NCBI GenBank assembly: GCA_043810285.1
Contig: JBDROH010000013.1
Coordinates: 1-46,152 of the forward strand
Source of the DNA: an archaeon
GTDB taxonomy: Archaea; Nanobdellota; Nanobdellia; Pacearchaeales; GW2011-AR1
DNA length: 46,152 nt
Direction of reading: 5' to 3'
A program made the translations under genes and the position numbers. The notes under the pieces were generated by a model. The model had not been told where the DNA came from. It searched no databases and was given only the letters and a program-made list of their open reading frames with translations. Positions 11,305 to 34,329 of this stretch are shown one piece after another (positions within the stretch are counted from its first letter, which is position 1; each line of letters begins with the position of its first letter).

Positions 11305-11448
11305 CTATCTTCGAGCTATCCATCCTTCACCACTAGCTTCCCAACATGCCCCTTCCATTACTCTGTCGATTGCACGAATCACATCATCTCTTCCTCGTTC
11401 GCCTTTGCGATTAAGGTCATCATATAAAACTTGTAGTTTAACTATCAT
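11305..11448 (-). CDS. 47-aa hypothetical protein (not in ORF track)
   Basis: AAGGAGGT Shine-Dalgarno before ATG; MIVKLQVLYDDLNRKGERGRDDVIRAIDRVMEGACWEASGEGWIARR. Confidence 0.5.
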   Translation of the reverse strand: MIVKLQVLYDDLNRKGERGRDDVIRAIDRVMEGACWEASGEGWIARR

Positions 11449-11597
11449 TTCTACCTCCTTAACGACTAAGAGTCTCATTTCTTTATATAGAATTATAGAC
11501 TTAGAAGTATATTTAATATCATAATTTGATTTAAATACTGTTTGACTTAAGAGTGATAGTGGCAGTTTTAGACAATAAATAAAACGCTATAGGAATT

Positions 11598-19145: not shown

Positions 19146-19592
19146 ATGGAAGAACATATTTCAACCGGAATAAGTCCGAAATACGATTCAGAAAATATCT
19201 GGAATACCATTTCAGACACTAAAAATAATTTCGAGTCAGTGGGAAAAGCTAAATTAGATTCTCTAAAAGAAACTGTAATTGAAATTGAAAAATTAATAAA
19301 AGAAAGGGGTAGTCTTAGCGAAAATTTTATCAATGAAGGTGAAAAAATGAAAAGAGATATTAAAAATTTTCTCTTAGAAAACACTCCAAGAGGAGAAGAC
19401 GATTCTGAATTCACAAGAGAAAGATCAGACTTAAGAAAAAAACAAATAGAAATCTCCGAACTTCAATTAAACGAAAAAGTGGGTTGTTGGAGAGATATAG
19501 CATTATTGAAAAAAGAATTAAGAGATCGGACTAAAGAACTAAGCGAAAAAATAAATCGAGCAGAAATATTCGAGCGTATACTTGACGAATAG
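19146..19592 (+). CDS. Hypothetical coiled-coil protein
   Basis: E/K-rich helical sequence; 16 bp upstream of the ATPase gene. Confidence 0.7.
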   Translation: MEEHISTGISPKYDSENIWNTISDTKNNFESVGKAKLDSLKETVIEIEKLIKERGSLSENFINEGEKMKRDIKNFLLENTPRGEDDSEFTRERSDLRKKQIEISELQLNEKVGCWRDIALLKKELRDRTKELSEKINRAEIFERILDE

Positions 19593-19608: not shown

Positions 19609-21528
19609 ATGATACAAACAAGACCATTATCTGTAGAAGAAATTTGTAACAGCCTTAGACCAGTCTTTGGAAAAAAAATAGATGATATTTATTTTAGATA
19701 TTCTATTGCTGAAGGGAGAGAAGAAAGAGAAGAGATTGCACATGTTCTTAGTGCTCTTTATCAAAAGAATCTTAACCAACTATTAGATAAAGGTGTTTTG
19801 TTAGAGCCTCCAAGAGAAGAACTTATCGATGGAGATTATTCTTTAGCTACGGTAAGCTATGCAAAAAGACAACTATTCCCCTTTAAAATTAGAGAAAAAG
19901 ATTGGCCAAGACATATTTGCATTACAGGAATGTCCGGATCTGGAAAGACTACCTTAGCATTTCATCTCATTGAATCTCTTAATCAACATAATAAACCTTT
20001 TTTAATATTTGATTGGAAAAAATCTTTCAGACCTCTAATCTCAATAGATAACTCACTTATGATTTTTACCATCGGTGATGAAAAAGTTGCAAATATATTC
20101 AAGACAAATATTAATCAACCGCCAAAAGGAGTATCTCCAAAAGAATGGATAAATGTTTTGTCAGACTTATTGACTGAAAGTTTTTCGGCATCATTCGGTG
20201 TTCATAAAGTTATTTTAGAAACCTTAGACGAAGCATTCAAAGAATGGGGAATCTACAATGGTTCAGAAAATTATCCTACTTGGAATCATATAAAATGGAG
20301 ACTTGAAGAAAAACTAGGAAAAACTCAAGGGCGAGAAGGTGGATGGCTTGAATCAGCATTGAGAGTTGCAACAGTTTTGACTTTTGGAGAATTCGGGAGA
20401 ACAGTAAATTATAAGGGTAAAAATAGTATTTCAGTAGAGGACTTGTTAAAAAGCAAAGTTGTTATGGAACTTAACACTCTTGGAAACATTGAAAAAAAAT
20501 TCTTTTGCGAATTTATTCTTACTTATATATATAAAATGAAAAAGGCTCGACAAAGTGATGTAAGCCAAAAGTTTGACCATGCAATTTTAGTCGATGAAGC
20601 ACACAATATTTTTCTAAAAAAACCAACAAATTTTTCTAACGAATCAGTAACAGATATGATTTATCGGGAGATGCGAGAATATGGCACAAGTCTTATTTGT
20701 TTAGACCAGCATATTTCAAAAATTTCAGATACTGTGAAAGGAAATAGTGCGTGTCATATTGCATTTCAGCAGCAATTACCTTCGGACATTCAAGACATTA
20801 GTGATTTAATGCAACTGAGAGAAAAGAGACATTACTTTTCTCAGTTACCCGTCGGAAGTGCTATAGTAAAACTTTCTGAAAGATATACATCACCTTTCTT
20901 AATAGAAGTTCCCTATGCTGAGATTAGAAATCAGAGAATAACTGATGATAATATTAAAAGTAGGATGCAGGCAATGTTGATGAATCACGAGTTTGAAAAA
21001 AAAGTTGATCCAGAATTTAATGACGCCATTCAAAATCCTGTTCCAAAAACTATTCAAGAGACTAAACTTGTTAATGAAAAAATTCCAGAGTTTACCGACG
21101 TACAAGAGTTATTATATAATTTTGTAAAAGAATATTTAGAATCTGGAGTAGAACTTAGAGAAATAGAAAAGATTTTGGAACAAAGCAAGGTTCAAGGAAA
21201 TTATACTAACCAAGATATCGTCGCTGTAATTAATAAAGTGTTTAGAAACCCTGCAGTAGTAACATTTAAAAAGAAGGAATTCCCCAAAATAGTATCTGCA
21301 GGATTAACACCTGACCAGCAAGTCTTTATAAAATTCTTGCAACAAAATCCGAATCATACCTCGAGCACAGTAGAAGTATACCAACAAGTTGGACTCTCTG
21401 CAAGGAAGGGAACTAAGATTAAAAATGAATTGCAGGAAAAAGGATTAATCAAAATCGAAGAGATAAAATACGAAAAAGGCTGGAAAAAATTAATTCGCCT
21501 AAATCATTGTATGCCCCGCCGAATATAA
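19609..21528 (+). CDS. HerA/FtsK/VirB4-like (DUF87) ATPase with probable C-terminal winged helix
   Basis: RHICITGMSGSGKT (Walker A), ILVDEAH (Walker B), REMREYG and LDQH; C-terminal VYQQVGLSARKG...LQEKGLI. Confidence 0.85.
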   Translation: MIQTRPLSVEEICNSLRPVFGKKIDDIYFRYSIAEGREEREEIAHVLSALYQKNLNQLLDKGVLLEPPREELIDGDYSLATVSYAKRQLFPFKIREKDWPRHICITGMSGSGKTTLAFHLIESLNQHNKPFLIFDWKKSFRPLISIDNSLMIFTIGDEKVANIFKTNINQPPKGVSPKEWINVLSDLLTESFSASFGVHKVILETLDEAFKEWGIYNGSENYPTWNHIKWRLEEKLGKTQGREGGWLESALRVATVLTFGEFGRTVNYKGKNSISVEDLLKSKVVMELNTLGNIEKKFFCEFILTYIYKMKKARQSDVSQKFDHAILVDEAHNIFLKKPTNFSNESVTDMIYREMREYGTSLICLDQHISKISDTVKGNSACHIAFQQQLPSDIQDISDLMQLREKRHYFSQLPVGSAIVKLSERYTSPFLIEVPYAEIRNQRITDDNIKSRMQAMLMNHEFEKKVDPEFNDAIQNPVPKTIQETKLVNEKIPEFTDVQELLYNFVKEYLESGVELREIEKILEQSKVQGNYTNQDIVAVINKVFRNPAVVTFKKKEFPKIVSAGLTPDQQVFIKFLQQNPNHTSSTVEVYQQVGLSARKGTKIKNELQEKGLIKIEEIKYEKGWKKLIRLNHCMPRRI

Positions 21529-21824
21529 CCAAAATTATTTGGTAGGGTACTAAATCATATTTACATATAAAACAAACAACATCCACAACACCACAGAAAT
21601 CCATAGACAACAATTCAAATCCTTAAAAATTTGAATTCATCGACACACCAGAAACAACGTGGAAAAACAATCAGAAATACCTCGTAAAAAACTAAAAATT
21701 TTACGAAATAGGTAATTTCTAAAGAAAAAAATTCTAGAAAGAACTTTATCATAACTGTCAAAATTAACTGAAATACCTAATGAATGGTATTTCTAATAAC
21801 GGAATATGTAAAAAGGAGGAGAAA

Positions 21825-22214
21825 ATGAAAGGGAAATTCGTTTTATTGGTAAGTTTAATGTTATTGGTGGTAAGTGGATGTTCTACAACTAATATAGGGA
21901 GGCTAAATAAAATTCAATTAGGATTAACTTCTGAGAGAACTATTCAGATTCTTGGGAAAAATTTTACTCAGAGAGGTAGTTGGATAAATTCTAATGGGGA
22001 CAAGGTAGTTATCGGACTCTATAATGGGGAGGATGAAATAATACTTCATTTTTGTAATGGCATTCTAAAAGAATTCGGTTCCTATGAATTATTATCTGCA
22101 TCTAGAAATTGGTATAAACTCAATGAAAAACAAATTAACAATAATAAATGGGAAAAGCTATACAAGGACAATCCCTCATCCAAGAAATTGGAAGAAAAAG
22201 AACAGGAAGAATAA
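21825..22214 (+). CDS. Putative lipoprotein (BamE/SmpA-like or DUF3192-like fold possible)
   Basis: AAGGAGG before ATG 21825; signal peptide with lipobox VSGC; LNKIQLGLT...ILG. Confidence 0.65.
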   Translation: MKGKFVLLVSLMLLVVSGCSTTNIGRLNKIQLGLTSERTIQILGKNFTQRGSWINSNGDKVVIGLYNGEDEIILHFCNGILKEFGSYELLSASRNWYKLNEKQINNNKWEKLYKDNPSSKKLEEKEQEE

Positions 22215-22250
22215 TTAACACTAATTCTAAAACGAAAGCGGGTGAAAATC

Positions 22251-22415
22251 ATGTGGATAATATATTTATTGGTTTTATTGTTTTTCCCTAAGTTGAGTAT
22301 CCTAGCCTTAATATGCACATTTTTTTATTATCTTGGAGGAGCCGTAGTAAGACTTAGATTAAAAAAACAGTTGTGTAGTATAAAGAATTGTATGGAAAGA
22401 GACTCAATTAATTAA
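22251..22415 (+). CDS. 54-aa membrane peptide (not in ORF track)
   Basis: GGTGA leader; MWIIYLLVLLFFPKLSILALICTFFYYLGG... Confidence 0.5.
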   Translation: MWIIYLLVLLFFPKLSILALICTFFYYLGGAVVRLRLKKQLCSIKNCMERDSIN

Positions 22416-22473
22416 AACTGGTAAGGGAGTTCAAACAAAATTCCAAATAAAAATAATCAAGGAGGAAAGTAAA

Positions 22474-22947
22474 ATGAACTTACTTTTAATTAGTTCAATA
22501 GTCTTTTTAGTAGTATTAGGTAATTGGAAAAGCAAAAAACTCGGAGACAAATTCAGGTTAAATCTAGTTTTATTTTACATCTCAACTTCTTTAATGTTTA
22601 TCTATTATATTGCCATTCTTTGGAATATAAAAAATCTCACACTACTGTCTAACATTCTGTTTCTCTCACTCTTCCCAATCACCTACACTTCAATATCATT
22701 AGTCGCAATTTGCTTTTGTGCCTGGAAAAAAGGAGGTTTCAGGAATTTAAGTGATTCGCCTTCTAAGGGATTGAATTTTGGACTGGTATGTGGGATGGTA
22801 TCTGGAATGATAGGTGGAGTTGTTATGGGATTAATTGCCAGTCTGGCTGTTGGAATGATTTCTGGACTTGCTATTGGATTGACTTTTGGACTGGTATGTG
22901 GAATGATAGGTGGACTGATAAGTGGGGTTGAAGATGAATTGAAATAA
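22474..22947 (+). CDS. Membrane protein with Gly-zipper (Gxxx)n repeats
   Basis: AAGGAGG leader; 4-residue periodic glycine; TTTTGGACTGGTATGTGG occurs twice. Confidence 0.7.
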   Translation: MNLLLISSIVFLVVLGNWKSKKLGDKFRLNLVLFYISTSLMFIYYIAILWNIKNLTLLSNILFLSLFPITYTSISLVAICFCAWKKGGFRNLSDSPSKGLNFGLVCGMVSGMIGGVVMGLIASLAVGMISGLAIGLTFGLVCGMIGGLISGVEDELK

Positions 22948-22986
22948 TATCTCAAGGAAACTATTAACATTAAAAGGGGGAAATAA

Positions 22987-23196
22987 ATGAAGAAATCAAA
23001 TTCAAATAAAGAAGTCCATATAGTAGCATTTAGAATGTTCTTAGGATGTTATCTAATTGTTGAATTCAGTACTGGAACACCAACTCTTACTGGAAGAATC
23101 ATTTTGGCTTATTTATGTTTCATACTTATCCGTTATCTATGGGGGGAAGTTATTGAGAGATATAACTACTACAAAACCTCAAACGAATGTGCCTAA
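22987..23196 (+). CDS. Small hypothetical membrane protein
   Basis: AAGGGGG leader; two hydrophobic segments. Confidence 0.6.
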   Translation: MKKSNSNKEVHIVAFRMFLGCYLIVEFSTGTPTLTGRIILAYLCFILIRYLWGEVIERYNYYKTSNECA

Positions 23197-23221
23197 ATAA
23201 AAATTAAAAAGAAAGGAGGTA

Positions 23222-23884
23222 GTGATGGAAAGTTCTAAACTTTCAAAAATGAGTAGCCTGAAAAAAACTCTGAAAAAACATAGCAAGAAAATAATCACAA
23301 TAACTTCTGTTGTAAGTATCTTGCTAATTCTATATTTGCTTCACAGCACAGGCATTGAGAATATAATCACAAAGAGTCTAAATCCAATATTCAATATGAT
23401 AGATTTTGCGTTTAGCCAAACTTTCTTTACACTACCCTTAAAGTGGATGCCCTTGGCACTCGTAATTTTTCTCATTGGATTTGTTGCAATAGTTTTGATA
23501 CTTTGGCCTTACATTTTTATCGGAGTATCATTCGTTGCATTAATAGCAAAAACTCTTTGGAATAAAAGAAAAAAGAAAAAAAGAATTGCGATAGCTGTAT
23601 GGATATTCTTGTTTGGTTATGTGTTCACAGTCTGGTTTGCTATGGCTAATGATACCGCGAACTGGTTGCCTGGAAAAAGTCAAACAGAATATATTCTCTA
23701 CGAAAAAGCTAACCCTTGGGCTGAAAAATATACTCCAGAGGCAGTAAAAAAAGCGATAGGGGAAAATCTCGCCGATAACTTAAATACAATTTTAAACATC
23801 GCAGAAAAACAAAATAATTTCTGGAAATGGATTAATGTTATCCGGAGTGGTGCAAAGATTTTCCTTACAAAAGGAATTTTTTAA
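23222..23884 (+). CDS. Hypothetical membrane protein
   Basis: AAGGAGGT leader; 3-4 TM segments. Confidence 0.7.
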   Translation: MMESSKLSKMSSLKKTLKKHSKKIITITSVVSILLILYLLHSTGIENIITKSLNPIFNMIDFAFSQTFFTLPLKWMPLALVIFLIGFVAIVLILWPYIFIGVSFVALIAKTLWNKRKKKKRIAIAVWIFLFGYVFTVWFAMANDTANWLPGKSQTEYILYEKANPWAEKYTPEAVKKAIGENLADNLNTILNIAEKQNNFWKWINVIRSGAKIFLTKGIF

Positions 23885-23899
23885 TAGGGAGGAAATAAA

Positions 23900-24055
23900 A
23901 TGGGGAAGATAAAGATTCCAAAGAACCAACCCAAAGAAGAAACTTTCGAAGATATACGTAACAGATATTATAAGGCTCCAAGAGGTTCCGAGGATGAAAA
24001 GAACGCATTTAAGGACTGGATTAATAAATCAGAAAAAGAACATTCATCAAAATGA
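23900..24055 (+). CDS. 51-aa hypothetical protein (not in ORF track)
   Basis: GGGAGG leader; contains YYKAPRGSEDE, similar to YYIAPPYSDIE in 27179-27508. Confidence 0.6.
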   Translation: MGKIKIPKNQPKEETFEDIRNRYYKAPRGSEDEKNAFKDWINKSEKEHSSK

Positions 24056-24094
24056 ATCTTCTGATTATCCTTAAAAAAGAAAGGAGGTAGAAAC

Positions 24095-24607
24095 GTGACT
24101 GACTTTTTTAGTGAGTTAATAACACGAAATAATTTCTGGCATATTCCGCTGATTCTGATATTTTGGGGAGGATTTCTCAGTTTTTCGATTTGGTGGATTA
24201 ATGCAGTAACACGGTTTATAGAAGTGAAGATGAAGGAGCGATACGGAACTATCTGGTGGCCTATAATAACATGGAAAAGTTTACATCGATTTTTTTCCAA
24301 GCCAAAAAAATGGAAATGGGGACAGAAGGTTGTAGTTATATTATTATTGTTAATATTTCTTTTGCAACATTTCGGTTACGATTCAACCACAGGAACAAGT
24401 TTTTACGATGGATGCGAGAAGGTTAATAGGGTTCTAACTCTTCAAGCAGTATTGGAGCGCTTACATCAAAAAGCTCAAGCATCCAAAAAGAAACCTTGGT
24501 GGGAAACTCCAATTAAGGTTCTTTTAAACGTGGCGAAAGTTGCAGGAACAGTCAAGAAAGGGGCTGATGCAGTAAATACGATAAGAGATGCAAAAGATTC
24601 TATCTAA
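24095..24607 (+). CDS. Hypothetical membrane protein
   Basis: AAGGAGGT leader with GTG start; Trp-rich TM segments. Confidence 0.7.
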   Translation: MTDFFSELITRNNFWHIPLILIFWGGFLSFSIWWINAVTRFIEVKMKERYGTIWWPIITWKSLHRFFSKPKKWKWGQKVVVILLLLIFLLQHFGYDSTTGTSFYDGCEKVNRVLTLQAVLERLHQKAQASKKKPWWETPIKVLLNVAKVAGTVKKGADAVNTIRDAKDSI

Positions 24608-24649
24608 TCATGTAATGATTAATCAGATTATCAAAATGGAAGGAGTAAG

Positions 24650-24856
24650 ATGAAAGACAAATTTCAGGTTATTAGTTTATGGAACCAGAATGAGAAAAAA
24701 GAAACGTATCGAGATAAAATATCAGCAATACCCCTCCTAACGTTTATCAAAGGAAATAAAAAGGAAGTTTTAAAGAAATATCGGAGGATTAGAAAAGATT
24801 TTTTAGAAATAAACCCTAAAGGAAAAATTTACTTAGTGGAAGTAATCGAGGAGTAA
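24650..24856 (+). CDS. Small hypothetical protein
   Basis: AAGGAG leader; 68 aa. Confidence 0.6.
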   Translation: MKDKFQVISLWNQNEKKETYRDKISAIPLLTFIKGNKKEVLKKYRRIRKDFLEINPKGKIYLVEVIEE

Positions 24857-24884
24857 AACAATTACATAAAGAAAGGAGATTAGA

Positions 24885-26054
24885 ATGTACCAGATAAAGA
24901 CCTTAAATAAGATTTCACCTAAAGGTTTGGTGACTTTCCCCCTAGATGATTACTTCATTAGTTCTGGAGTAGGTTATCCTAACGCGATACTGCTTAGAAG
25001 CTATAATATGAACAATATGGTCTTACCAGAATCTTTGTTAGCAATCGGAAGAGCTGGAGTCGGAGTAAATAATATTCCTGTACAAAAATGTTCTGAAATA
25101 GGAATAGTTGTCTTTAACACACCTGGAGCAAATGCTAATGCAGTTAAAGAACTAACAATAGCCGGATTGTTTTTAGCATCTCGGGACATAGCAAAAGGAA
25201 TATCTTTTACAGAATTTATTAAAGGGGCAGGAGCAGAAATTCCTAATCTCATTGAGCAGAATAAAAAAAATTATGCTGGTCAAGAAATATTTGGAAAAAC
25301 TCTCGGTGTAATCGGACTTGGAAAAATCGGAATTGCCGTTGCCAACAGCGCGCTTGATCTTGGAATGGAGGTAATCGGTTACGACCCATTCATCTCAGTT
25401 GAATCTGCTTGGGGATTATCACGAAAAGTACAACACGCTGAAAGTTTAGAAATACTGATGGCTAAATTTGATTATATTTCTTTGCATACTCCGTTAACAG
25501 ATAAGACACGTGGTTTTATTAATGCAGAAAAATTTAATCGCATGAAAAAAGGCGTTCGTATTTTGAATTTTTCCCGAGGGGAAATTGTCAATAATTTTGA
25601 CTTGGGATTAGCAATCAAAAGTGGAGTTGTAGCAAAGTACGTAACAGACTTTCCTAATGATGAATTAATCAAGATGGAAAATGTTATCCCTATCCCGCAT
25701 TTGGGAGCATCTACGCAAGAAGCGGAAGACAATTGTGCAGTTATGATTGTCAAACAGATTCGCGATTTTATTGAGACGGGTAGGATTAAAAATTCCGTTA
25801 ATTACCCTGATTGTAAATTAGAGACAAACTCTGAATTCCGCTTACTGATTATGAATAAAAATATTCCTAATATGGTGGGACAGATATCTTCTATCCTTGC
25901 ACAGGCAAATATCAATATCGTAGAGATGCTCAATAAAAGCAAGGGTGATTATGCCTGTAACCTGATAGACATATCGAGCGCGCCGACTGAAAAGATCATA
26001 AAAAACCTGTATGGCATTGAAGGAGTATTGAAAGTTAGAGAGATCTGCTACTAA
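24885..26054 (+). CDS. serA: D-3-phosphoglycerate dehydrogenase with C-terminal ACT domain (bacterial type)
   Basis: RAGVGVNN, NTPGANANAV, GLGKIG, NFSRG, PHLGAST and ACT NKNIPNMVGQIS. Confidence 0.9.
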   Translation: MYQIKTLNKISPKGLVTFPLDDYFISSGVGYPNAILLRSYNMNNMVLPESLLAIGRAGVGVNNIPVQKCSEIGIVVFNTPGANANAVKELTIAGLFLASRDIAKGISFTEFIKGAGAEIPNLIEQNKKNYAGQEIFGKTLGVIGLGKIGIAVANSALDLGMEVIGYDPFISVESAWGLSRKVQHAESLEILMAKFDYISLHTPLTDKTRGFINAEKFNRMKKGVRILNFSRGEIVNNFDLGLAIKSGVVAKYVTDFPNDELIKMENVIPIPHLGASTQEAEDNCAVMIVKQIRDFIETGRIKNSVNYPDCKLETNSEFRLLIMNKNIPNMVGQISSILAQANINIVEMLNKSKGDYACNLIDISSAPTEKIIKNLYGIEGVLKVREICY

Positions 26055-26287
26055 GTTAGAAGATAATCGAAAATGAAAAATGTGAAAAATTATCTAATTA
26101 AAAATCAAGGGGGTGGTTGTATAAGACCTTCTAACAATTATTAAATTTTAATCAACACTAACCATTTAATTAAAAGGAGGTGTAATATGGCCTAAGTTGC
26201 AACAAGATATGACAACTGGAAAATTCTGGAGAAGTTTTTAAGAATTTAAATATTAACGTAACAAAAAATTAAAATGGAGGTAGTAAA

Positions 26288-27070
26288 ATGAAACGGATAC
26301 ATTTATTCATTTTGGTAATGGTAATTGCATTATGTTTTTCTGCAACAATTGTTAATGCTTCAAGTTTGAGTATCGGCGCGAAGGTAACTTCTTCTGAATG
26401 GGATGAAGTATACACGGGAGGAATAGAAATTCCGGATCCAACTTTTGAAAGTCTTACCTTTGCATCGAAAGCTAAGACCAATCAGAAGACGATTGAGTTG
26501 GGATATAATCCTTTCAGCTGGTTGAAACTTAATGCAGGATTTGGTATTGGAAGTATTAGTAGCGACATCGATTGGGTTGACACTTTAATCCCATACAATA
26601 TGGTTAGCACCGGGAAACTAACCTTTAAAGATAATTCTGGTAAGGTTATTACTCTAGGGGTAGGGATAGAGAAAGAGTTAAGTGGATGGATTTTGAATTT
26701 GTCTGCCCAGAAATTGATACAGAAGAATAATAAGTTAGAAGGAACATTCATTGTGGACAGTTATGGTTCGGAACCTGTAAGTGGCAGTGCAAAGATCAAC
26801 GAGGTGGCCGGGAAAGTTTCCATTGGAAGAAGAATGGGAAAATTCGTACCTTATGTCGGGGTAGGTTATGCGAAGGTCGATACAAAATACTTATGGGGAT
26901 GGGATGAACTGATTAATCAGGGAACTCAGGAATGCAACTTCGAATCCGACAAGAATATTGGAATGTTTATCGGCACCGATTGGAATTTGGATGATGCATG
27001 GAGTCTGAATCTTGAGGGCAGGTTCATCGATAAACAGGCGATAAGTCTTGCTGTTGGTTGTAAATTCTAA
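26288..27070 (+). CDS. Outer-membrane beta-barrel-like protein
   Basis: Signal peptide, alternating amphipathic strands, PYVGVGY, LNLEGRF, and terminal strand ISLAVGCKF ending in Phe. Confidence 0.75.
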   Translation: MKRIHLFILVMVIALCFSATIVNASSLSIGAKVTSSEWDEVYTGGIEIPDPTFESLTFASKAKTNQKTIELGYNPFSWLKLNAGFGIGSISSDIDWVDTLIPYNMVSTGKLTFKDNSGKVITLGVGIEKELSGWILNLSAQKLIQKNNKLEGTFIVDSYGSEPVSGSAKINEVAGKVSIGRRMGKFVPYVGVGYAKVDTKYLWGWDELINQGTQECNFESDKNIGMFIGTDWNLDDAWSLNLEGRFIDKQAISLAVGCKF

Positions 27071-27178
27071 AACTGATCTTGCGTGGCGATGATGGTTGGG
27101 TCCTTAATCTTGTTATTTAGCTTAAGGGCCCAATCGCCATCTTTCAAATTAAATTAAATATTCATTGGGGGAGGTAAA

Positions 27179-27508
27179 ATGAAAGGAATCAACATTGAAG
27201 GAATGTCAAAAGAGATATGCATCGCTCCGGAGAAAATCAGACAAGCTTGTAAAACCTTAGGTTGCCCTAACAAAGTATTTTGTCCTAAGGAAAGTATTAA
27301 AGAACTCAAGGCAATCTGCGATTCATTCACAAGTGATTCCGATGGTCGAATAGAGGCTGAAAGAAACTGGAAGATTAAGTGTTGTGATAAAATACTTGGG
27401 GAAGCAAAAACTAAAGGAAGCCTTATAGCAGCATATTATATAGCTCCCCCATATTCGGACATTGAAGATGAAGTTATCAGAAGACTAATTAAATTCTTTA
27501 GAAACTAA
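27179..27508 (+). CDS. Hypothetical helical protein
   Basis: GGAGGT leader; AAYYIAPPYSDIE motif. Confidence 0.65.
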   Translation: MKGINIEGMSKEICIAPEKIRQACKTLGCPNKVFCPKESIKELKAICDSFTSDSDGRIEAERNWKIKCCDKILGEAKTKGSLIAAYYIAPPYSDIEDEVIRRLIKFFRN

Positions 27509-27896
27509 CTATAGCAACCCCGAGAATCGGTGCTGAGGAATATAAACAATCTGACTTAACAACGGCACCGATTCTTAAAATAAGGGAACGCTAATCCACA
27601 AGGAGGTGATGCCCTAAATAATAAATGTCTTAGGACCCACCTACTAGTTACCAATTAAATAAAGAAACCATAAATAAAATTGCCGGGAAAAAGAAATCTT
27701 TAGAAAGGGAGGAAAGACGATTTAAGTTATACAACGAACAGAGTAAACAGATTATAGAAATAAAATAAGCATCATCTAAGATAGCTTAAGACATCTGCCG
27801 TTCCCTAAATGAGATACACCCAAAAAGAAATTCATCCTTCAAAGTAGGGAACGGCATTTCAACATTTATTTGAACAAATGGAAGGGGAAGTAAAAT

Positions 27897-28364
27897 ATGG
27901 AAAAAGATAATTATAGGGGAGAGATAATCGAGGGATTACGTAAAACCTATGGAAGCATTAGTAACGTTAAGGAGGTAGTGATGGAAAGTTCTTCGGGAAA
28001 AAGAGGAAAAAATAAGATTATTGAGCTTAAGGAACAAGCTGCAGAATTGAAGAAACAAGTTAATGAACTCAAATCATTCAAATCCTCAATGGATGGGATA
28101 AATGTGTATATCGAAGAAAGCGGAATTAAAGAAATAACTGGCGTAAGAAATTCAGCGGTTTTGTATCTGCATCATTTACAACTAATAGTAGAGACGCTAC
28201 AAACCAAAAATGAAAAACTTGAAAGGTTGCTTAACAAGAATAGGTTATTAGAATTGCTTAAAGGATTAACAAGTAATCGAAGTTTTCAAGAAAGAGGATT
28301 TTTGATGACAACAGAAAGCGTAAGAATAGATTTAACCGAAGCAATACGAAACGAAAAAATCTAA
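27897..28364 (+). CDS. Hypothetical coiled-coil protein (alternative start 27978/27981)
   Basis: Two in-frame starts with SD; the internal one has AAGGAGGT. Confidence 0.65.
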   Translation: MEKDNYRGEIIEGLRKTYGSISNVKEVVMESSSGKRGKNKIIELKEQAAELKKQVNELKSFKSSMDGINVYIEESGIKEITGVRNSAVLYLHHLQLIVETLQTKNEKLERLLNKNRLLELLKGLTSNRSFQERGFLMTTESVRIDLTEAIRNEKI

Positions 28365-28400
28365 ACATTTTGTAGACAAAATAAGAAAAGAGGAAGTGTA

Positions 28401-28778
28401 ATGAGTACTCGAAAATTAATTAAAAAGTTAATGCAAAGAGAAATTACTTCACTATGCGGGATAATTGTTCTTGTAGGAGTAGTAATAATCCTCTTTATGA
28501 TTGAAGCTTCAGCTCCAACAATCACAAAAATTTCAGCAGGATTAGTATTAATAGGGACAGTTTTAGGGGGCTTCTTTTTAGAAAAGCAAACAAAAAAGGA
28601 GGTTCTTAATGAGTTAGAAGAAAGAATAGGTAGTGAAAAATTCCAAATAGCAAAAACATATCTGAAGTATAGGACCTCTTTAAATATCTCTCTCTGTTAT
28701 CTATGTCCCCTGTCGATAAAAATAGAGGTCTTACAATATTTCAAAGATATTGGGTTTAAATGTAATATAGATTATTAA
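28401..28778 (+). CDS. Hypothetical membrane protein
   Basis: GAGG leader; two TM helices. Confidence 0.65.
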   Translation: MSTRKLIKKLMQREITSLCGIIVLVGVVIILFMIEASAPTITKISAGLVLIGTVLGGFFLEKQTKKEVLNELEERIGSEKFQIAKTYLKYRTSLNISLCYLCPLSIKIEVLQYFKDIGFKCNIDY

Positions 28779-28880
28779 CTATGTACAAAACACCTTTGAC
28801 TAAAAATTGTAAGGGCTAGGGGAATTTAAAAAATATTTAGTTACAAACATTTATCTAGAAAAAAGGAAAGGCATACGGAT

Positions 28881-29351
28881 ATGAATAAACAAAATAAAAA
28901 ACAGGAAGAGAATAATGGAATTAACCTTTCATGTACGGGGGTAGAAGGGTTGCGTGTAAGTATATTCAAACTCGAGGAAGATAAACTATACCTTTGCTCA
29001 AAAATAAATTTTGGAATAAAAGAAACCGATCCTGTACAGAGCGTAATTATTAAATGTACAGATGATGAAAAAGTTATAAAATTTTGCGAACAGAATGAAC
29101 TGAAAAACATAAGAAACTGTTCATTAAACGATGAGTTGCGCATAACTGCTGGAGTATTTACAAAGAATATTAGGTCCTTAGACCGAATAATAGAATTTGT
29201 CAGGGGCGAGGGTATTCAAGAGATAGAACCGGATAAAATTAAACAACCCGTTAAAGATACTAAACGTTTTCCGTATAATCCTCAAATAATAAAGAAACTC
29301 TATCGTCGAAAAAGAAATGAAATGGCTGATTATCTTAGAATGGTAGGTTAG
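28881..29351 (+). CDS. Hypothetical protein
   Basis: 156-aa ORF with a purine-rich leader. Confidence 0.65.
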   Translation: MNKQNKKQEENNGINLSCTGVEGLRVSIFKLEEDKLYLCSKINFGIKETDPVQSVIIKCTDDEKVIKFCEQNELKNIRNCSLNDELRITAGVFTKNIRSLDRIIEFVRGEGIQEIEPDKIKQPVKDTKRFPYNPQIIKKLYRRKRNEMADYLRMVG

Positions 29352-29380
29352 TTAACAAAATTTTAAGGAGGTGTATCATA

Positions 29381-29668
29381 ATGGAAAATAAACAACTAAC
29401 TATTAAAAAATTTAGGAAATACTGTTTTATTGGAGGTATAGTTACGATCATTATCTTTTGCAGAGTTGTATATTTTACAGGAATCCAATTAGTTACTAGT
29501 CCGCAAGATTCTACTTTGTATAAACTCCTAGTTACTCTCTGGGTCTTATTAGTAGTCATTGCCACAACCCTATTCGCAATGTCTTATGCCTGTTACAAAA
29601 TATTGAAGGATATGTTATTTGAACGACTTTATTATGAGGATCAAGAAGAATCTGTAACAATTAATTGA
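29381..29668 (+). CDS. Hypothetical membrane protein
   Basis: TAAGGAGGTG leader; two TM helices. Confidence 0.65.
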   Translation: MENKQLTIKKFRKYCFIGGIVTIIIFCRVVYFTGIQLVTSPQDSTLYKLLVTLWVLLVVIATTLFAMSYACYKILKDMLFERLYYEDQEESVTIN

Positions 29669-29829
29669 AAGTAATAGGGAATAGCCTAGGCGCCATTGTT
29701 AGCCCGTTCCGTGTTAGACCCCCTCTTTATGCGGATAAGGCAGATGGCGCCGTCTATTTTAATTTACTATAAAACCTTGGAAATTTAAATAGGAAAAATA
29801 TATAAAAAACTTGGAAAGAAGGTGAATAA

Positions 29830-30045
29830 ATGTTTAAATCTTTTTTGATTATATTCACTGTAATATGGTTATGGATATCTATTATAGTTACATCTTCAAA
29901 AATAGTGGAGATGATTGTTGCTAGTATAAATAATTCGGCGATGAAGAATACCGCTATAAGTAATAAGTTAAAGTATCCCAGAAATGTTGTTGCCTTTTTC
30001 TGGACAATCTGGTTCATACTAATGATGTTAATCCTAAAAAATTAA
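29830..30045 (+). CDS. Small membrane protein
   Basis: AGGTGA leader; two TM helices. Confidence 0.6.
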   Translation: MFKSFLIIFTVIWLWISIIVTSSKIVEMIVASINNSAMKNTAISNKLKYPRNVVAFFWTIWFILMMLILKN

Positions 30046-30050
30046 GGGAG

Positions 30051-30311
30051 GTGATGAATAATAAAGTCACGAAAATTGTAGCAAAAATTATTATTGGAAA
30101 ACATGAGGGAAGATATGGTATAGTCTACGAGTATGGAGGAGGTACAATAACTTTCTCATTAGAACCTCCTGTTTGGAAAGGAGAAGGTTCAACAAATTTA
30201 ATGAGGGGTGACTGGGTTACCTTGGGGAATATAAAAATGCATGGTAATCCTCCAAAAAAAAGGGCTGGTAGTGCTCGTTTAGCTATAGAAGAAGAGATAA
30301 TGCAGTATTAA
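30051..30311 (+). CDS. Small beta-rich (OB-fold-like) hypothetical protein
   Basis: GKH.G.Y...ITFSLEPPVW...GDWV.L pattern recalled from a Parcubacteria hypothetical family; not verified. Confidence 0.6.
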   Translation: MMNNKVTKIVAKIIIGKHEGRYGIVYEYGGGTITFSLEPPVWKGEGSTNLMRGDWVTLGNIKMHGNPPKKRAGSARLAIEEEIMQY

Positions 30312-30400
30312 AAAAATTGGAGAGCATTAGAAATAAAACTTGAAAAGAATAAGAAAATCAAATCAAAACCAGGCTAAATAGAGTAAAGGAGAATAGTTTA

Positions 30401-30574
30401 ATGGACAAAAGGAAAAAGAAATGTACTGGATGTGGTAAAAGAGAAGCCAAACCACATACAGATAATGGATTAGATTGTGGCGATGATTTATGTGATATTT
30501 GTTTTGAAAAGATGGTTAACGATTGTAGAAAAAAAGTTGGTGAGAAAGGTGGAAATAAATTGATAAATAAATAG
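30401..30574 (+). CDS. 57-aa zinc-finger protein (not in ORF track)
   Basis: AAGGAG leader; CTGC...DCGDDLCDIC. Confidence 0.65.
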   Translation: MDKRKKKCTGCGKREAKPHTDNGLDCGDDLCDICFEKMVNDCRKKVGEKGGNKLINK

Positions 30575-30699
30575 GGGGAGGAGGGAGCAACAAAAATTCT
30601 ATTTCTTAAGATCTTTGTTAACAAATTAGGGTTGGGGAAAATTTAGTAGGCTATTTCTCAGCCCTAATTTATTCTGAAATAATTTTAAAAAAGGATTTA

Positions 30700-30849
30700 A
30701 TGAAAATGAGAAAACAAATGAGAAAACAAAGAAATCGTCGGTGTTTTAGAAATAATAAATCAACAAATTCAACAAATGGCAGGAGGCATAAAGAGGTTAG
30801 ATCAAAAATAAATTCCGGTCAGGATGCAAGGGAGTTTAGGAGAAAATAA
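30700..30849 (+). CDS. 49-aa highly basic peptide (not in ORF track)
   Basis: AAGGA leader; MKMRKQMRKQRNRR...; in-frame 12-bp and 9-bp tandem duplications. Confidence 0.4.
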   Translation: MKMRKQMRKQRNRRCFRNNKSTNSTNGRRHKEVRSKINSGQDAREFRRK

Positions 30850-30906
30850 AATTTTTAGAGGGTTAATTATTAAAACTATTTGAAAGATTATTAAAAAGGG
30901 GGAAAA

Positions 30907-31263
30907 ATGTTTCATTCTGATAAAGAAGTTAACGAAGTAAATCAATTAATAAATGAAATAAAGAACTGTACCGTGTCACATGTGCAGAATATTGTAATAG
31001 ACATAATTACAGAATCCGAAATAAAATATATAAATATGGGTGTAAAGAAAATCCATAGTATTTATCTACCAATTTTAGATTCTGTCTTTAAGTTAGCGGC
31101 GGATAGTCTGACAAAGGAGATAGGGGCACTTAATGAAAAAGAGAAGGCTCATCTCAAGAGGATGCTGTTCAATCTATTGAAACCGATAGAGCTTCATCAA
31201 CCTATTAAACCTCTCCAGATAATAACATATAAAGAATTGCTAGATCGAATAAAATTATTTTAA
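30907..31263 (+). CDS. Hypothetical protein, paralogue of 31369-31734
   Basis: Starts MFHSDK; similar length and C-terminus to the next gene. Confidence 0.7.
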   Translation: MFHSDKEVNEVNQLINEIKNCTVSHVQNIVIDIITESEIKYINMGVKKIHSIYLPILDSVFKLAADSLTKEIGALNEKEKAHLKRMLFNLLKPIELHQPIKPLQIITYKELLDRIKLF

Positions 31264-31273
31264 ATAAAAACTC

Positions 31274-31315
31274 AAACAAAAAAGGACCTCTTCGTAATTT
31301 GAATGTCCTTTTTTT
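31274..31315. terminator. Intrinsic-terminator-like hairpin, copy 1 of a 42-bp direct repeat
   Basis: AAACAAAAAAGGACCTCTTCGTAATTTGAATGTCCTTTTTTT: A-tract, GGAC/GTCC stem, T-tract. Confidence 0.75.
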
Positions 31316-31368
31316 GTCAAACCGGGTTACAAAGAACTAATATGTTTACAAAAGAAGGAGGTAAGAAA

Positions 31369-31734
31369 ATGTGCCATTCTGATAAGGTTATTAAACTTAA
31401 AATAACTGAATTAGTGGAAAGATTAAAAGACTATAAAGTCGAGAATTTTTGTAAAGCTGTATTTGAAATCGCTGAAGAATTTCAGAGAAAATACATAAGC
31501 CGAGATGATGTACAGCATGTTTCTTCTATTATAGGTGTTGCGGCTCAACTAAGAGACCGGACTGAGGGCTTAAAGATAGAACAACTTGCACCTGAGGAGT
31601 ATGATTTTAAAGATATATTGTGGTTGATAAATTTCCTGATTATTCAAAGAAAAGTTAATCACCCAGTCGAGATGGTTACATATACTACCCTCGAAGAACT
31701 CGAGAAAAAAATAAGGGTGATAGAAAGAAGATAA
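31369..31734 (+). CDS. Hypothetical protein, paralogue of 30907-31263
   Basis: AAGGAGGT before ATG 31369; starts MCHSDK. Confidence 0.7.
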   Translation: MCHSDKVIKLKITELVERLKDYKVENFCKAVFEIAEEFQRKYISRDDVQHVSSIIGVAAQLRDRTEGLKIEQLAPEEYDFKDILWLINFLIIQRKVNHPVEMVTYTTLEELEKKIRVIERR

Positions 31735-31738
31735 AATT

Positions 31739-31782
31739 AAACAAAAAAGGACCTCTTCGTAATTTGAATGTCCTTTTTTTTT
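31739..31782. terminator. Intrinsic-terminator-like hairpin, copy 2 of the 42-bp direct repeat
   Basis: Identical to 31274-31315 with two extra Ts; closes the array. Confidence 0.8.
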
Positions 31783-31896
31783 GGTCTTAGGTATATACTA
31801 CAATATACTATATCCTAACATATATATTAAATAATCTCCTCTACATAATAAAAAATCTACAACAACATTTATATATTCTATCCTCTGAATAACCTT

Positions 31897-34329
31897 ATGG
31901 GTGACGATTATATCAGATGGCTTTCAAATATTTCTAAGGAGGATATAAAACTTACGGGAGGCAAGGGTGCAAATCTAGGAGAGATATTTAACGCAAAGTT
32001 CCCGGTCCCTCAAGCATTCGTAATAACAACAGATGCATTTTACTATTTTATAAAAGAAACAAAAGTAAAAGACCAAATCCGAGAAATTCTAAACAAAATT
32101 GACGTAGATGACACAGACAGCTTAACAAAAAAAGCAGAAGAAATAAGAAATATTATCATTGACACTAAAATGCCAGAAAATTTAAAAAATGAAATTCTTG
32201 AAGCATACGACCATTTCAATATTGATCTAGATGGGATGGGAAGTTCTCCTGGAGCATTATCTATATTAAGGTCATCACGAGAACCAGTTTTCGTTTCAGT
32301 AAGAAGTTCAGCGACGGCAGAGGACCTAGGCGATGCAAGTTTCGCAGGACAACAAGATTCGTTTATCAATGTCAAAGGAAACCCAGAACTAATCGAAAAA
32401 GTAAAACGATGTTTTGCTTCAATCTTCACAGCACGTTCATTATATTACCGTAAGAAAAAAGGTTTCGATGATTTTGTTGGAATCGCAGCAGTCGTTCAAA
32501 AAATGATAAACTCAGATAAATCTGGAGTAATGTTCTCGAGGCATCCTGTAAAAAATAACGATGAAATTTTAATCGAGGCAGTATTCGGTCAGGGTGAAGG
32601 AATCGTCTCAGGGAAAATCAAACCAGACCAATATATCGTCAAAAGAAATTTAGAAATCGTCGAGGAAAAAGTTTCAGATAAAAAATTAGCAATTATCCGT
32701 ACTTCAGGAGGACAAACAAAAACAATTCAGCTAACTCCTGAGAAATCCCATCAAAGAGTCTTGAAAACTTATGAGATAAAACAACTTGCAGAATACGCAA
32801 TAAAACTCGAAGACCACTATAAGAAACCCCAAGACATTGAGTTCGCAACTGAGGGAGAAGAAATCTATATATTGCAAACAAGACCAATAACAACACTAAA
32901 AGAAAATCAAGCCGAGGCTGTAGAATTAGAAGGTCAGATTTTAACTCAGGGTTTGGCAGCGTCGCCAGGAGTAGCCTCAGGAATTGTAAAAATAATTCGT
33001 TCAATGGATGACTTGGGAAAAATAAAACAAGGAGACGTCTTAGTTACTACAATGACAAATCCGGATATGGTTGTAACAATGCAAAAAGCCGCAGCAATCG
33101 TGACATCTGAAGGAGGAGTAACGGCACACGCAGCAATCATCTCACGAGAAATGGGAATTCCAGCAGTAGTAGGAACAGAAGATTGTCTAGACAAATTAAA
33201 AGATGGAGACGAAGTAACCGTTGATGGTTCAAATGGAAAAGTTTTTGCTGGAAGAGCCGAAAATAAAAAGATAGAAATTTTACCAATTGTCGAAACAAAA
33301 ACAAAAATCAAAGTACTAGTTGACCTACCACAATTTGCAGAACGAGCAGCAAAAACCAAGGCTTATGGAATCGGGCTTGTTCGACTTGAAGGATTAATTG
33401 CACTCGGAGGAAAACATCCATTAGCTTATGAAAAAGAAAATAAACTTGAAGATTACAAAGAAATGTTAAAGAAAGGTCTAAGCAAAATTGCCGATACATT
33501 CATAGGAAAACCAATCTGGGTTCGGTCTTCAGATATCCGTAGTGACGAATATTCAAATCTCGAAGGTGCACCTAAAGAAATTGAAAGAAATCCTATGCTT
33601 GGCGACCACGGAATTAGATTCTCATTAAAACACCTTGGAATATTCAAGGCAGAACTTGCAGCTATAAAAGAACTCGCTGATAAGGGCCATAAATTTGGAG
33701 TGATGTTCCCACAAGTTATTTCAGTAGAAGAAGTAAAACAAGCAAGAAAATTATTTAATGAAATGAAAATAGACAATGTCCAATTAGGAGTAATGATTGA
33801 AACACCTGCAGCCTCAATTTTAATTAAAGATATTTGTGATGAAGGTATAGATTTTATTTCATTCGGGACAAATGACTTGACGCAGTACACATTAGCAATC
33901 GACAGAGGAAATGAGGAAGTCCAAAATATTTATGACGAAACAAACTGGGCAGTTCTAAAACAAATCTCACGAGTCATAAGAGAATGTAAAAGCCATGGAG
34001 TCGAAACTTCAATCTGTGGACAAGCCGGCTCGAATAAAAAGATGGTAGAATTCTTAGTCAAACAAGGGATAGATTCAATCTCTGTCAACGCAGATGTAGC
34101 AAAAGAAATTTCAGAGTTAGTAAGAAAACTTGAAAGTGAAAAAACTGAAGAACCAAAAATCGAACCTCTCGACAATAAAGAATCTATCAAAGAAGAACTT
34201 CAAGAAAGACAAACACTAGAACAAGAAAGGATAGAAGAAATAAAAGAACCAGTAATTGAGAATTTAATAGAAGAACCTGCAGAAGAACCTTCCAAAAACA
34301 AACCAGCAAAAGAAGACATCTTTAATTAA
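31897..34329 (+). CDS. ppsA: Phosphoenolpyruvate synthase (pyruvate, water dikinase)
   Basis: GGKGANLGE, VRSSATAED, SFAGQ, phospho-His GGVTAHAAIISRE, NPMLG, FGTNDLTQ and SICGQ; acidic tail. Confidence 0.95.
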   Translation: MGDDYIRWLSNISKEDIKLTGGKGANLGEIFNAKFPVPQAFVITTDAFYYFIKETKVKDQIREILNKIDVDDTDSLTKKAEEIRNIIIDTKMPENLKNEILEAYDHFNIDLDGMGSSPGALSILRSSREPVFVSVRSSATAEDLGDASFAGQQDSFINVKGNPELIEKVKRCFASIFTARSLYYRKKKGFDDFVGIAAVVQKMINSDKSGVMFSRHPVKNNDEILIEAVFGQGEGIVSGKIKPDQYIVKRNLEIVEEKVSDKKLAIIRTSGGQTKTIQLTPEKSHQRVLKTYEIKQLAEYAIKLEDHYKKPQDIEFATEGEEIYILQTRPITTLKENQAEAVELEGQILTQGLAASPGVASGIVKIIRSMDDLGKIKQGDVLVTTMTNPDMVVTMQKAAAIVTSEGGVTAHAAIISREMGIPAVVGTEDCLDKLKDGDEVTVDGSNGKVFAGRAENKKIEILPIVETKTKIKVLVDLPQFAERAAKTKAYGIGLVRLEGLIALGGKHPLAYEKENKLEDYKEMLKKGLSKIADTFIGKPIWVRSSDIRSDEYSNLEGAPKEIERNPMLGDHGIRFSLKHLGIFKAELAAIKELADKGHKFGVMFPQVISVEEVKQARKLFNEMKIDNVQLGVMIETPAASILIKDICDEGIDFISFGTNDLTQYTLAIDRGNEEVQNIYDETNWAVLKQISRVIRECKSHGVETSICGQAGSNKKMVEFLVKQGIDSISVNADVAKEISELVRKLESEKTEEPKIEPLDNKESIKEELQERQTLEQERIEEIKEPVIENLIEEPAEEPSKNKPAKEDIFN

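Follow-up and report, generated by a model that had tools for sequence, protein, structure and literature searches.

The window analysed here is a whole 46-kb contig (46,152 nt) from a metagenome-assembled genome (MAG) of a groundwater archaeon of the Pacearchaeales (571 kb in 27 contigs, 33.5% GC). Besides archaeal backbone genes (L35Ae, L10e, form III RuBisCO and class I GluRS), it carries an array of small genes between a HerA/FtsK-type ATPase gene and ppsA. The array comprises about 21 open reading frames (ORFs) in 21825-31734, all on the + strand, in agreement with the more than 20 successive + strand ORFs described in a first-pass annotation. A crude greedy caller put two - strand ORFs inside the array (29754-30017 and 30358-30624); strand is ambiguous at these two sites because the calls overlap the + strand ORFs 29830-30045 and 30401-30574. 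The array is set in a fixed frame that consists of a promoter-like stretch, a leader with GAAATACC repeats, and a terminator with an AT-rich motif, and within the genus this frame usually lies directly behind a conserved gene pair that encodes a 148-aa protein and the ATPase. The parts are as follows:

19146..19592, + strand: 148-aa charged, coiled-coil-like protein, directly upstream of the ATPase gene
19609..21528, + strand: HerA/FtsK-superfamily P-loop ATPase of 639 aa with a C-terminal winged-helix-like region
21529..21576, + strand: putative promoter before the leader, an A/T box followed by GGTAGGGTACTAAATCATATTTACA
21577..21798, + strand: conserved structured leader of ~225 nt, directly after the ATPase gene
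21582-21586 paired with 21659-21663: leader helix H0
21612-21620 paired with 21629-21637: leader helix H1
21674-21719 and 21770-21793: leader helices H2 and H3
within the leader: conserved single strand GACACACCAGAAAC
21674 and 21770: 8-mer GAAATACC, with its complement at 21786 and a degenerate copy, GGAATATG, at 21801
31276..31316, + strand: internal terminator copy, hairpin and T-run, with 40 nt identical to 31740-31779
31740..31782, + strand: closing terminator, 13-nt arms (92% complementary) followed by T9
31790..31829, + strand: AT-rich end motif of 40 nt, GGTATATACTACAATATACTATATCCTAACATATATATTA, right after the terminator

Both flanks of the array are archaeal core genes on the one contig. 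Contigs from sequencing runs of four studies tile the array with zero differences, and contigs of other studies bridge 21383-21848, 21656-21971 and 31760-31979, also without differences, joining the ATPase gene to the leader and the first cargo gene, and the terminator to ppsA. These bridging Logan contigs are short, and the whole array is not spanned by any single piece. Because independent, error-free contigs cross both ends, the array is no assembly artefact, and a chimera is ruled out by these contigs together with synteny in 20 genomes.

In relatives, the run of L35Ae, L10e, a methyltransferase, the 148-aa protein and the ATPase is conserved upstream of the array, as is ppsA downstream. 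The interval between ATPase and ppsA ranges from ~0.4 to 15.9 kb across 20 same-genus genomes (0.4, 0.76, 1.4, 1.5, 2.0, 3.5, 3.6, 4.2, 4.3 and 4.4 kb in the shorter ten; 4.5, 4.8, 6.8, 7.4, 8.9, 10.4, 11.0, 12.6, 12.65 and 15.9 kb in the longer ten). It is filled by ORFs that are nearly all on the + strand, with Shine-Dalgarno motifs (SDs) of the AAAGGAG type. Of the 388 crude ORFs in 28 arrays, no more than 50 belong to shared families (17 in all), and the DNA of the whole array gave chance-level matches of 23-63 nt only when compared to 400 genomes of the family. The locus therefore has the hallmark of a flexible genomic island, i.e., conserved flanks around non-homologous content, and the expectation of variable cargo between conserved ends was borne out.

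Comparison with the closest relatives shows how the content changes. The G448 genome (ATPase 88% and ppsA 90% identical) has a 12.65-kb array of ~24 genes, five of which are shared with the window at 29-62% identity and in the same order, with other genes between them. Three genes of the window (22987, 23222 and 24095) are common to the two closest relatives, collinear and ~58-62% identical, and G448 and G449 both carry single-gene insertions between collinear shared genes. Part of the array is thus vertically inherited. A 5.5-kb contig from another Pacearchaeota MAG (L042) holds a diverged, collinear copy of part of the array (37-72% identity), including relatives of 22987, 24650, the SerA-like gene, the beta-barrel-like gene and 27897; neither leader nor ATPase was found on this contig, and the ATPase had no match in its genome. 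In the G370 genome, the methyltransferase gene leads directly to ppsA, without 148-aa gene, ATPase or array. Array GC is 45-59% in G005, G009, G446, G426 and G081, compared to 33-40% in the flanks (10-20 points higher). Overall, the cargo changes much more quickly than the flanking genes, as single genes or small groups are gained, lost or duplicated in tandem.

The leader behind the ATPase gene is the most distinctive part of the frame. A covariance model (R1), built from three leaders with a hand-set structure, gave 20 matches in the collected loci and 25 across the 49 genus genomes, spread over 22 of them; of the 23 genome matches examined, 17 were verified directly behind the ATPase gene and 6 lie elsewhere. 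In the resulting alignment, 30 of 38 pairs changed on both sides (0 of 500 shuffles were as high), and pairing was kept in 90.2% of cells compared to 29-52% when the partners were slid. H0, H1 and the inner part of H2 have had their sequence wholly replaced between genomes with pairing kept. Together with a fold z-score of -3.57 for the window's own copy, these data uphold the structured leader proposed in the first-pass annotation. RNAalifold found no structure in a MAFFT alignment of 16 leaders because the stems were misaligned, and the model-based alignment was used instead. No Rfam 15 family matched the leader: only two tRNAs in the window reach their gathering scores, and at E up to 10 the region 21400-21900 gave a single chance-level sRNA match (E 4.7) on the opposite strand. 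Counting both orientations, the 571-kb genome contains 19 copies of the 8-mer GAAATACC, three of which lie within 120 nt at the leader (two direct, one inverted); the motif is conserved there in relatives and in two other genera.

Leader copies without an adjoining ATPase were found in G443 (behind ppsA), G426 (two in tandem), G439, G003 and G441. These carry their own TATA box (TTTAAAAA) and conserved start region (GTTACCACTA) at the same distance from the leader, and some are followed by genes of 49-56% GC. Behind every leader copy examined lie + strand, SD-led ORFs whose products have signal peptides or transmembrane (TM) segments, and five of the six copies that lie elsewhere are closed by a T-run and the AT motif (the sixth locus is covered to 6 kb). 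Since copies of leader, array and end recur at other loci, the unit is the frame rather than the chromosomal site. In other genera of the family, a long array of small + strand ORFs comes after the ATPase gene in 10 of 10 loci with downstream DNA; two of these loci were read, and their spacers contain GAAATACC four or five times as well as an H3-like inverted pair.

At the distal end, the doubled terminator that the first-pass annotation described is present as two identical 40-nt copies (31276-31316 and 31740-31782). They bracket the last gene, which is itself a paralogue of its neighbour. Across the loci, each array ends in a hairpin with T-run and, immediately behind it, an AT-rich motif of ~40 nt. 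The full end motif occurs at the array end only, and a loose 12-nt core matches twice in the 571-kb genome; in the collected loci, this core was found at 25 places, nearly all right after a T-run, and some in tandem pairs. In four loci (L015, L022, L095 and L101), a small conserved reverse-strand gene (~108-111 aa) stands between two copies of the end motif, between the array end and ppsA; this gene is absent from the window.

Translation start signals also set the array apart from most of the genome. A strict test, which asked for at least 5 nt of the SD consensus 2-13 nt upstream of the start, was positive for 8 of 18 array ORFs and for 69 of 623 crude ORFs genome-wide (11%). With a looser motif and refined starts, the counts rose to 15 of 18, with 10 in succession, compared to 115 of 625 genome-wide. 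A TATA-like motif starting at -24 to -36 precedes none of 16 array ORFs, compared to 164 of 549 ORFs elsewhere (150 occurrences at -29/-28). The genome is thus mainly leaderless and the array block is not, and both the SD-led array and the TATA-led backbone of the first-pass annotation are confirmed. The only other run of five or more SD-led genes in the genome is a ribosomal-protein operon on contig C27. SDs are therefore the native start mode of this organism for internal genes of long operons and, contrary to the first-pass annotation, give no evidence of foreign origin. Per-gene GC in the array (0.28-0.39) shows no deviation from the host, and its codon-usage distance is 0.0187, compared to 0.0158 +/- 0.0093 for randomly drawn runs of neighbouring genes, 25% of which deviate as much.

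The long hairpins said to intersperse the array are not present in excess: a scan for terminator-like hairpins found 8 sites, compared to 7.8 +/- 3.0 in shuffled sequence. Two perfect hairpins do lie in the 27508-27897 spacer (27523-27575 and 27796-27856; arms of 11 and 12 nt, loops of 31 and 37 nt, no T-run after them). Spacers are generally short (12 of 20 under 60 nt, 8 of 20 under 40 nt). The two longest (233 and 388 nt) each contain a strong SD followed by ATG, one codon and a stop (26173-26196, M-A-stop; 27600-27617, M-P-stop), which could be scars of deleted genes or start-stop elements.

The cargo genes of the window are as follows:

21825..22214, + strand: cargo 1, 129-aa lipoprotein-like protein with predicted signal peptide and lipobox VVSGC, no family match
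22242..24856, + strand: cargo 2-8, tightly packed SD-led small genes with spacers of 15-58 nt
22242-22415, 22474-22947, 22987-23196 and 23222-23884, + strand: cargo 2-5
22474-22947, + strand: among these, a five-TM glycine-zipper protein of the most widespread cargo family
23900-24055, 24095-24607 and 24650-24856, + strand: cargo 6-8
24885..26054, + strand: cargo 9, SerA-like D-3-phosphoglycerate/2-hydroxyacid dehydrogenase with a C-terminal regulatory part
26288..27070, + strand: cargo 10, 260 aa, signal peptide, beta-barrel-like domain of the outer membrane protein (OMP) type, C-terminal ...CKF
27179..31263, + strand: cargo 11-20, with longer spacers (5-388 nt) and weak family matches at most
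27179-27508, + strand: cargo 11, 7 Cys
27897-28364, + strand: cargo 12, coiled coil, with a 43-44% identical relative on the L042 contig
28401-28778, 28881-29351, 29381-29668, 29830-30045 and 30051-30311, + strand: cargo 13-17
30401-30574, + strand: cargo 18, Cys-rich, zinc-finger-like
30700-30849, + strand: cargo 19, 39% K+R
30907-31263, + strand: cargo 20, paralogue of cargo 21
31369..31734, + strand: cargo 21, paralogue of 30907-31263 and last gene of the array

The likely start of cargo 1 is ATG 21825, downstream of AAAAAGGAGGAGAAA, and that of cargo 21 is probably ATG 31369, after AAGAAGGAGGTAAGAAA; a longer ORF from 31303 would start within the terminator copy. Only 2 of the 21 cargo ORFs could be assigned to a family using Pfam, PHROG and NCBIfam (the SerA-like protein and, at the borderline, the OMP-like protein), and none of the 21 matched the PADLOC defence models. 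Hydrophobic segments are present in 10 of 21, including five of the seven proteins of cargo 2-8 (1-5 segments each).

The SerA-like protein (Pfam 2-Hacid_dh_C, E 3e-38; NCBIfam PGDH, E 2.5e-75, under its cut-off) has relatives of 66-75% identity in Omnitrophota-type MAGs. A tree of 58 sequences joins it to the single other Pacearchaeota copy with a Shimodaira-Hasegawa-like approximate likelihood-ratio (SH-aLRT) support of 99, and this pair is nested in a 24-row bacterial clade (SH-aLRT 99) of Omnitrophota, 'Planctomycetia'-labelled and similar bins. Because of this nested position, the gene is a bacterial-to-archaeal transfer from Omnitrophota-type bacteria. The 58 Omnitrophota loci inspected around SerA contained no further array gene, and the L042 contig was the sole collinear relative. 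Cargo 10 scores 28.8 bits against Pfam OMP_b-brl, just above the cut-off of 28.7, and its family comprises 15 proteins in a 5.8-billion-protein database, one of them a Candidatus Omnitrophica outer membrane beta-barrel protein with 28% identity; no Omp85/BamA was found in five genomes with beta-barrel or OmpA cargo. The five-TM protein at 22474-22947 belongs to a family with 11 members in seven genomes in our array comparison and with ~20 proteins in the 5.8-billion-sequence database, all named solely '[archaeon]'. The claim that genes came from several donors is accordingly upheld in part: SerA is bacterial, but codon usage is host-like, the commonest family is archaeal-only as far as recorded names show, and the shared genes are collinear. 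The window's cargo is a mix of lineage-only proteins and a few bacterial-type ones.

Membrane and envelope functions are over-represented when more arrays are considered. Of the 235 array ORFs with 60 aa or more, 137 contain a hydrophobic 19-mer, compared to 183 of 607 in the G000 background. Among 130 larger array ORFs from the genus and other genera, 25 have a Pfam family at E <=1e-4 and 105 have none; many of those with a family are envelope-related (beta-barrel, OmpA, N-methyl pilin motif, Lcl_C, RHS, SbmA, Band_7 and PEP-CTERM-like tails). PEP-CTERM had been considered as a bacterial marker and was dropped, because exosortase/archaeosortase homologues occur in 2-3 of the four genomes concerned: PF09721 was found in G448 (C2:13368-14099), G441 (C28:43534-43905) and weakly in G005. 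No exosortase/archaeosortase was found in the window's own genome.

The ATPase next to the leader has Pfam matches to DUF87 (E 1.9e-9) and Zot, and weak ones to TraG, TrwB and FtsK (FtsK_SpoIIIE, E 0.008). NCBIfam CedD matches it partially (E 3.5e-19; 68.9 bits compared to a cut-off of 600), PADLOC mad8 does so with E 2.6e-15, and the PHROG 'terminase large subunit' family matches partially, on the P-loop; HerA 4d2i is a weak match in the PDB (E 0.001-0.005). PADLOC matched no MADS-type defence partner among the 21 cargo ORFs or in the 148-aa protein. The Atlas cluster of the ATPase has 77 members, mostly Nanobdellota, and the CedB family scores 0.92 there. The C-terminus (~565-630) has sub-threshold winged-helix matches (phrog_11046, E 1.8e-4; RPA_C, E 0.006; LexA_DNA_bind, E 0.12). 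The ATPase was found in 16 of 25 same-genus (g1) genomes searched, G000 included, and, at 57-68% identity, in 15 of 191 genera of the family that were sampled. Within the genus it is 65-75% identical, similar to the neighbouring ribosomal-protein genes (69-83%). The 148-aa protein, which has no Pfam, PHROG, NCBIfam or PADLOC family, is found by tblastn upstream of the ATPase in same-genus loci at 61-81% identity, and in three of the four other-genus loci checked at 46-53%. In G015, G018, G020, G021, G022 and several other genera, the ATPase gene carries an insertion of 400-600 nt between the core (1-480) and the C-terminal domain, giving open frames of 690-810 aa.

Based on these observations, we think it somewhat probable that the interval is a lineage-specific, hypervariable cargo operon with fast turnover, and at the same time an expression platform. 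Under this proposal, a promoter at the leader would drive a polycistronic transcript through the cargo, and SD motifs would serve the internal cargo genes, as in the ribosomal-protein operon. If the operon is leader-driven and starts are SD-led, only insertions in the + direction would be expressed and kept, which would explain the strict orientation. The leader may act in cis on the transcript through read-through, stability or translation, and/or its 8-mer repeats may be binding sites for the winged-helix-like C-terminal domain of the ATPase. The cargo products would act at the cell surface, where they plausibly contact a host or partner cell. As for the route of insertion, no recombinase, cassette-specific site, attC or tRNA was found at the array. 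In kind, the locus would belong with flexible islands and cassette arrays, with the leader and the end motif as two apparently new parts.

Several observations weigh against this proposal. The internal terminator copy suggests at least some internal termination and hence more than one transcription unit, as do the two longest spacers (233 and 388 nt). A promoter, a single transcript and a leader that is RNA are themselves predictions from sequence, and two RNA runs from the same study contained almost no sequence words of the locus. G-U cells barely exceed A-C cells in the leader alignment (38 vs 28), which leaves the strand of the structure unsettled; the alignment behind the covariation counts was fitted to the model, and inverted repeats of a protein-binding DNA site could account for H3 and the outer part of H2. 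R1 gave no significant match in 149 other genera or in 13 other-genus loci (best E 0.2), although this does not amount to absence because the model derives from three sequences and the filters were strict; conservation of the leader at family level thus rests on the reading of two loci. The link of the ATPase to leader and array is positional only, and six leader copies lack it. With regard to gene collecting, codon usage in the window's array is host-like and the commonest cargo family is archaeal-only by recorded names, so that the foreign-gene case in the window genome reduces to one clear example (SerA) and one weak example (the OMP-like protein). In other genera, where array ends are undefined, some of the Pfam-positive 'cargo' may be backbone, and the PEP-CTERM-like tails of relatives may be archaeosortase signals.

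Other explanations account for parts of these data. Misjoined or misbinned bacterial DNA is suggested by the bacterial look of SerA, the OMP-like protein and the lipobox, and by the fragmentation of the genome into 27 contigs, but we give it almost no credence: archaeal core genes flank the array on both sides of the same contig, the same architecture recurs at the same locus in 20 genomes, error-free contigs tile the region and cross both ends, and the composition of the array is that of the host. Host-like codon usage also fits an ordinary, vertically inherited operon of fast-evolving surface proteins, in which turnover would be divergence beyond detection and nothing would have been collected. 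The collinear genes of the two closest relatives, the archaeal-only names of the commonest family and the native use of SDs in operons point the same way, and the 105 of 130 larger cargo ORFs without a Pfam family are what would be expected of fast-evolving lineage proteins. We nonetheless consider purely vertical descent improbable, given the 40-fold spread in length and gene numbers from 0-1 to >20, array GC 10-20 points above the host in several genomes, the bacterial clade around SerA, the single-gene insertions between collinear genes in G448 and G449, and the duplication of the leader-array frame at other loci. Another candidate is an integron cassette array without its integrase (cluster of attC sites lacking an integrase, CALIN), since tandem, short, same-strand, promoterless cassettes of mostly unknown function and variable content are integron-like traits. 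In passages of Ghaly et al. 2022 (PMC9668308), archaeal integrons, mostly CALINs, are reported from 75 MAGs in nine phyla, DPANN and GTDB Nanoarchaeota among them. Most spacers of the array are too short for attC sites, with the lengths given above. An attC site is an imperfect hairpin of ~55-140 nt after each cassette, and at least two within 4 kb serve as the criterion. An inverted-repeat scan, used together with spacer length rather than an attC covariance model, revealed no recurrent post-ORF hairpin; PF00589 tyrosine recombinases were found twice in the whole genome (contigs C24 and C21) and not on the window contig (C13); no recombinase was found among array or flank ORFs; and the conserved ends are the leader and the terminator motif instead of attI/attC. 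A CALIN is therefore very unlikely.

A further alternative, which we consider possible but doubtful, is that the 148-aa gene, ATPase, leader and array form one mobile element (an integrated plasmid, conjugative or virus-like) that is resident or has been domesticated. The ATPase would move double-stranded DNA and read the GAAATACC repeats through its winged helix, much as TraB reads clt, and the small membrane proteins would be a fast-evolving transfer or spread apparatus plus passengers; DNA beside the recognition site would be exchanged most often, which would produce the hypervariability. This is consistent with the HerA/FtsK/TrwB/CedB kind of ATPase and its partial 'terminase large subunit' match, with the concentration of 3 of 19 genomic GAAATACC copies within 120 nt and their recurrence behind the ATPase in other genera, with the patchy distribution of the ATPase (15 of 191 genera) and the lack of the whole set in G370, and with the extra leader-array copies and deviant GC of some arrays. 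Archaeal plasmids and viruses likewise have many small TM ORFans in one direction. On the other hand, searches of the array ORFs and of 131 and 130 ORFs of relatives' arrays (Pfam, PHROG, NCBIfam) turned up no gene for an integrase, transposase, capsid, terminase or replication protein, and there is no relaxase; the absence of these hallmark genes and of attC-like hairpins supports the view of the first-pass annotation that the array is no recognisable prophage and no classical integron. The array junctions in the window and in 10 loci contain no tRNA. The SerA gene was the sole match of a DNA search against phage and plasmid collections, alignments of the OMP-like and coiled-coil cargo found no relative in IMG/VR, and the leader pattern gave at least 116 chance-level matches there, with R1 finding no leader among the 80 listed. 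The ATPase keeps its place beside ribosomal-protein genes with similar conservation (65-75% vs 69-83%), array length varies from 0.4 to 16 kb, and the winged-helix matches stay below threshold. H0, H1 and inner H2 covary independently of sequence, for which a set of protein sites gives no explanation. A more elaborate scheme would combine collecting and expression in an integrase-independent capture and display system: a DNA pump with a winged helix at the 8-mer leader, DNA taken from or exchanged with adjacent cells, diderm bacteria like Omnitrophota among them, landing between leader and end motif, and a leader-run operon that over time yields a strain-specific, host-mimicking envelope arsenal (lipoprotein, beta-barrel, pilin-like and sorting-tail proteins) for contact with a bacterial host. 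We regard this as quite improbable.

The cargo operon and expression platform that we favour has likenesses among characterized systems. The closest working analogy for ATPase and 8-mers may be the TraB-clt-spd locus of Streptomyces, which the array resembles without being a member. In both, several small membrane-protein genes of unknown family follow in one direction. In passages of PMC4447253, the FtsK-like TraB is described as reading the direct 8-bp repeats of clt with its C-terminus, and here too the gene of an ATPase that may be FtsK-like adjoins a short non-coding locus with repeated 8-bp motifs, which also speaks for a mobile element. Differences are the archaeal host, the chromosomal, syntenic site without replication or integration genes, the only distantly HerA/FtsK-like ATPase with its putative winged helix, and a cargo far larger and more variable than spd operons. 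The Ced system of archaeal DNA transfer, with ATPases of the HerA/VirB4 kind (CedB; CedD in NCBIfam), likewise places an ATPase of this superfamily beside small membrane-protein genes, but the match is 68.9 bits compared to a cut-off of 600, no CedA-like partner was recognised, and the partner genes here are not conserved at all. Integrons and CALINs, as far as the passages cited above describe them, share with the array a fixed platform, tandem same-strand short genes of unknown function, content that differs and genes that cross domains; they differ in that IntI, attI and attC-like hairpins are lacking here, many spacers are 5-60 nt, the frame is a leader with 8-mers and a terminator/AT motif, and the neighbour is a HerA/FtsK-type ATPase.

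Replacement-type flexible islands such as those for O-antigen or capsule carry a conserved JUMPStart/ops leader, and EAR (EPS-associated RNA) is a leader RNA for processive antitermination. These systems also combine a long, one-direction, variable operon, often of deviant composition and set between conserved flanks, with a conserved non-coding leader, and by analogy the leader of the array could keep transcription going through heterogeneous cargo. The cargo here is not glycan synthesis, the host is archaeal, the frame is multi-copy, and the leader is multi-helix without a known relative; antitermination is purely a suggestion.

These findings bear on the question of how, and at which sites, bacterial-type genes enter tiny archaeal genomes. 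The array offers a recognisable frame with quick gene turnover, into which at least one bacterial gene has entered. In a protein-family survey of DPANN, many bacterial-type genes were reported and read as lateral transfer (PMC8204110); the words 'island' and 'hotspot' do not occur in the passages of that survey that were searched. A literature search, with supplements outside its coverage, found no account of this locus or leader. The leader is a new conserved structured element with strong covariation, and to our knowledge few cis-regulatory RNAs are known in archaea. The ATPase and the GAAATACC repeats are a candidate pair of protein and site, and the envelope bias provides a handle on contact partners, for which Omnitrophota are candidates given the SerA gene and the beta-barrel family.

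Arrays of two other genera depart from the SD-led pattern seen here and show different upstream elements. In L246 (G189, 800-10100), a conserved AATTTAAnTTnAAAACnTC lies directly before each start codon and looks like a promoter for leaderless cassettes, and in L245 (G205, 700-12000), an identical 20-mer, AAATTTAGGAGGACAAAAAA, precedes many genes. Elsewhere in the window, the form III-type RuBisCO large-subunit gene (4593-6011, - strand) lies beside genes for a Na+/H+ exchanger and a P-type ATPase. The contig end carries an IS240-type DDE transposase (42274-43200), a HARE-HTH protein (43242-43511) and a fused type I restriction-modification M/S gene (43513-45903, - strand).

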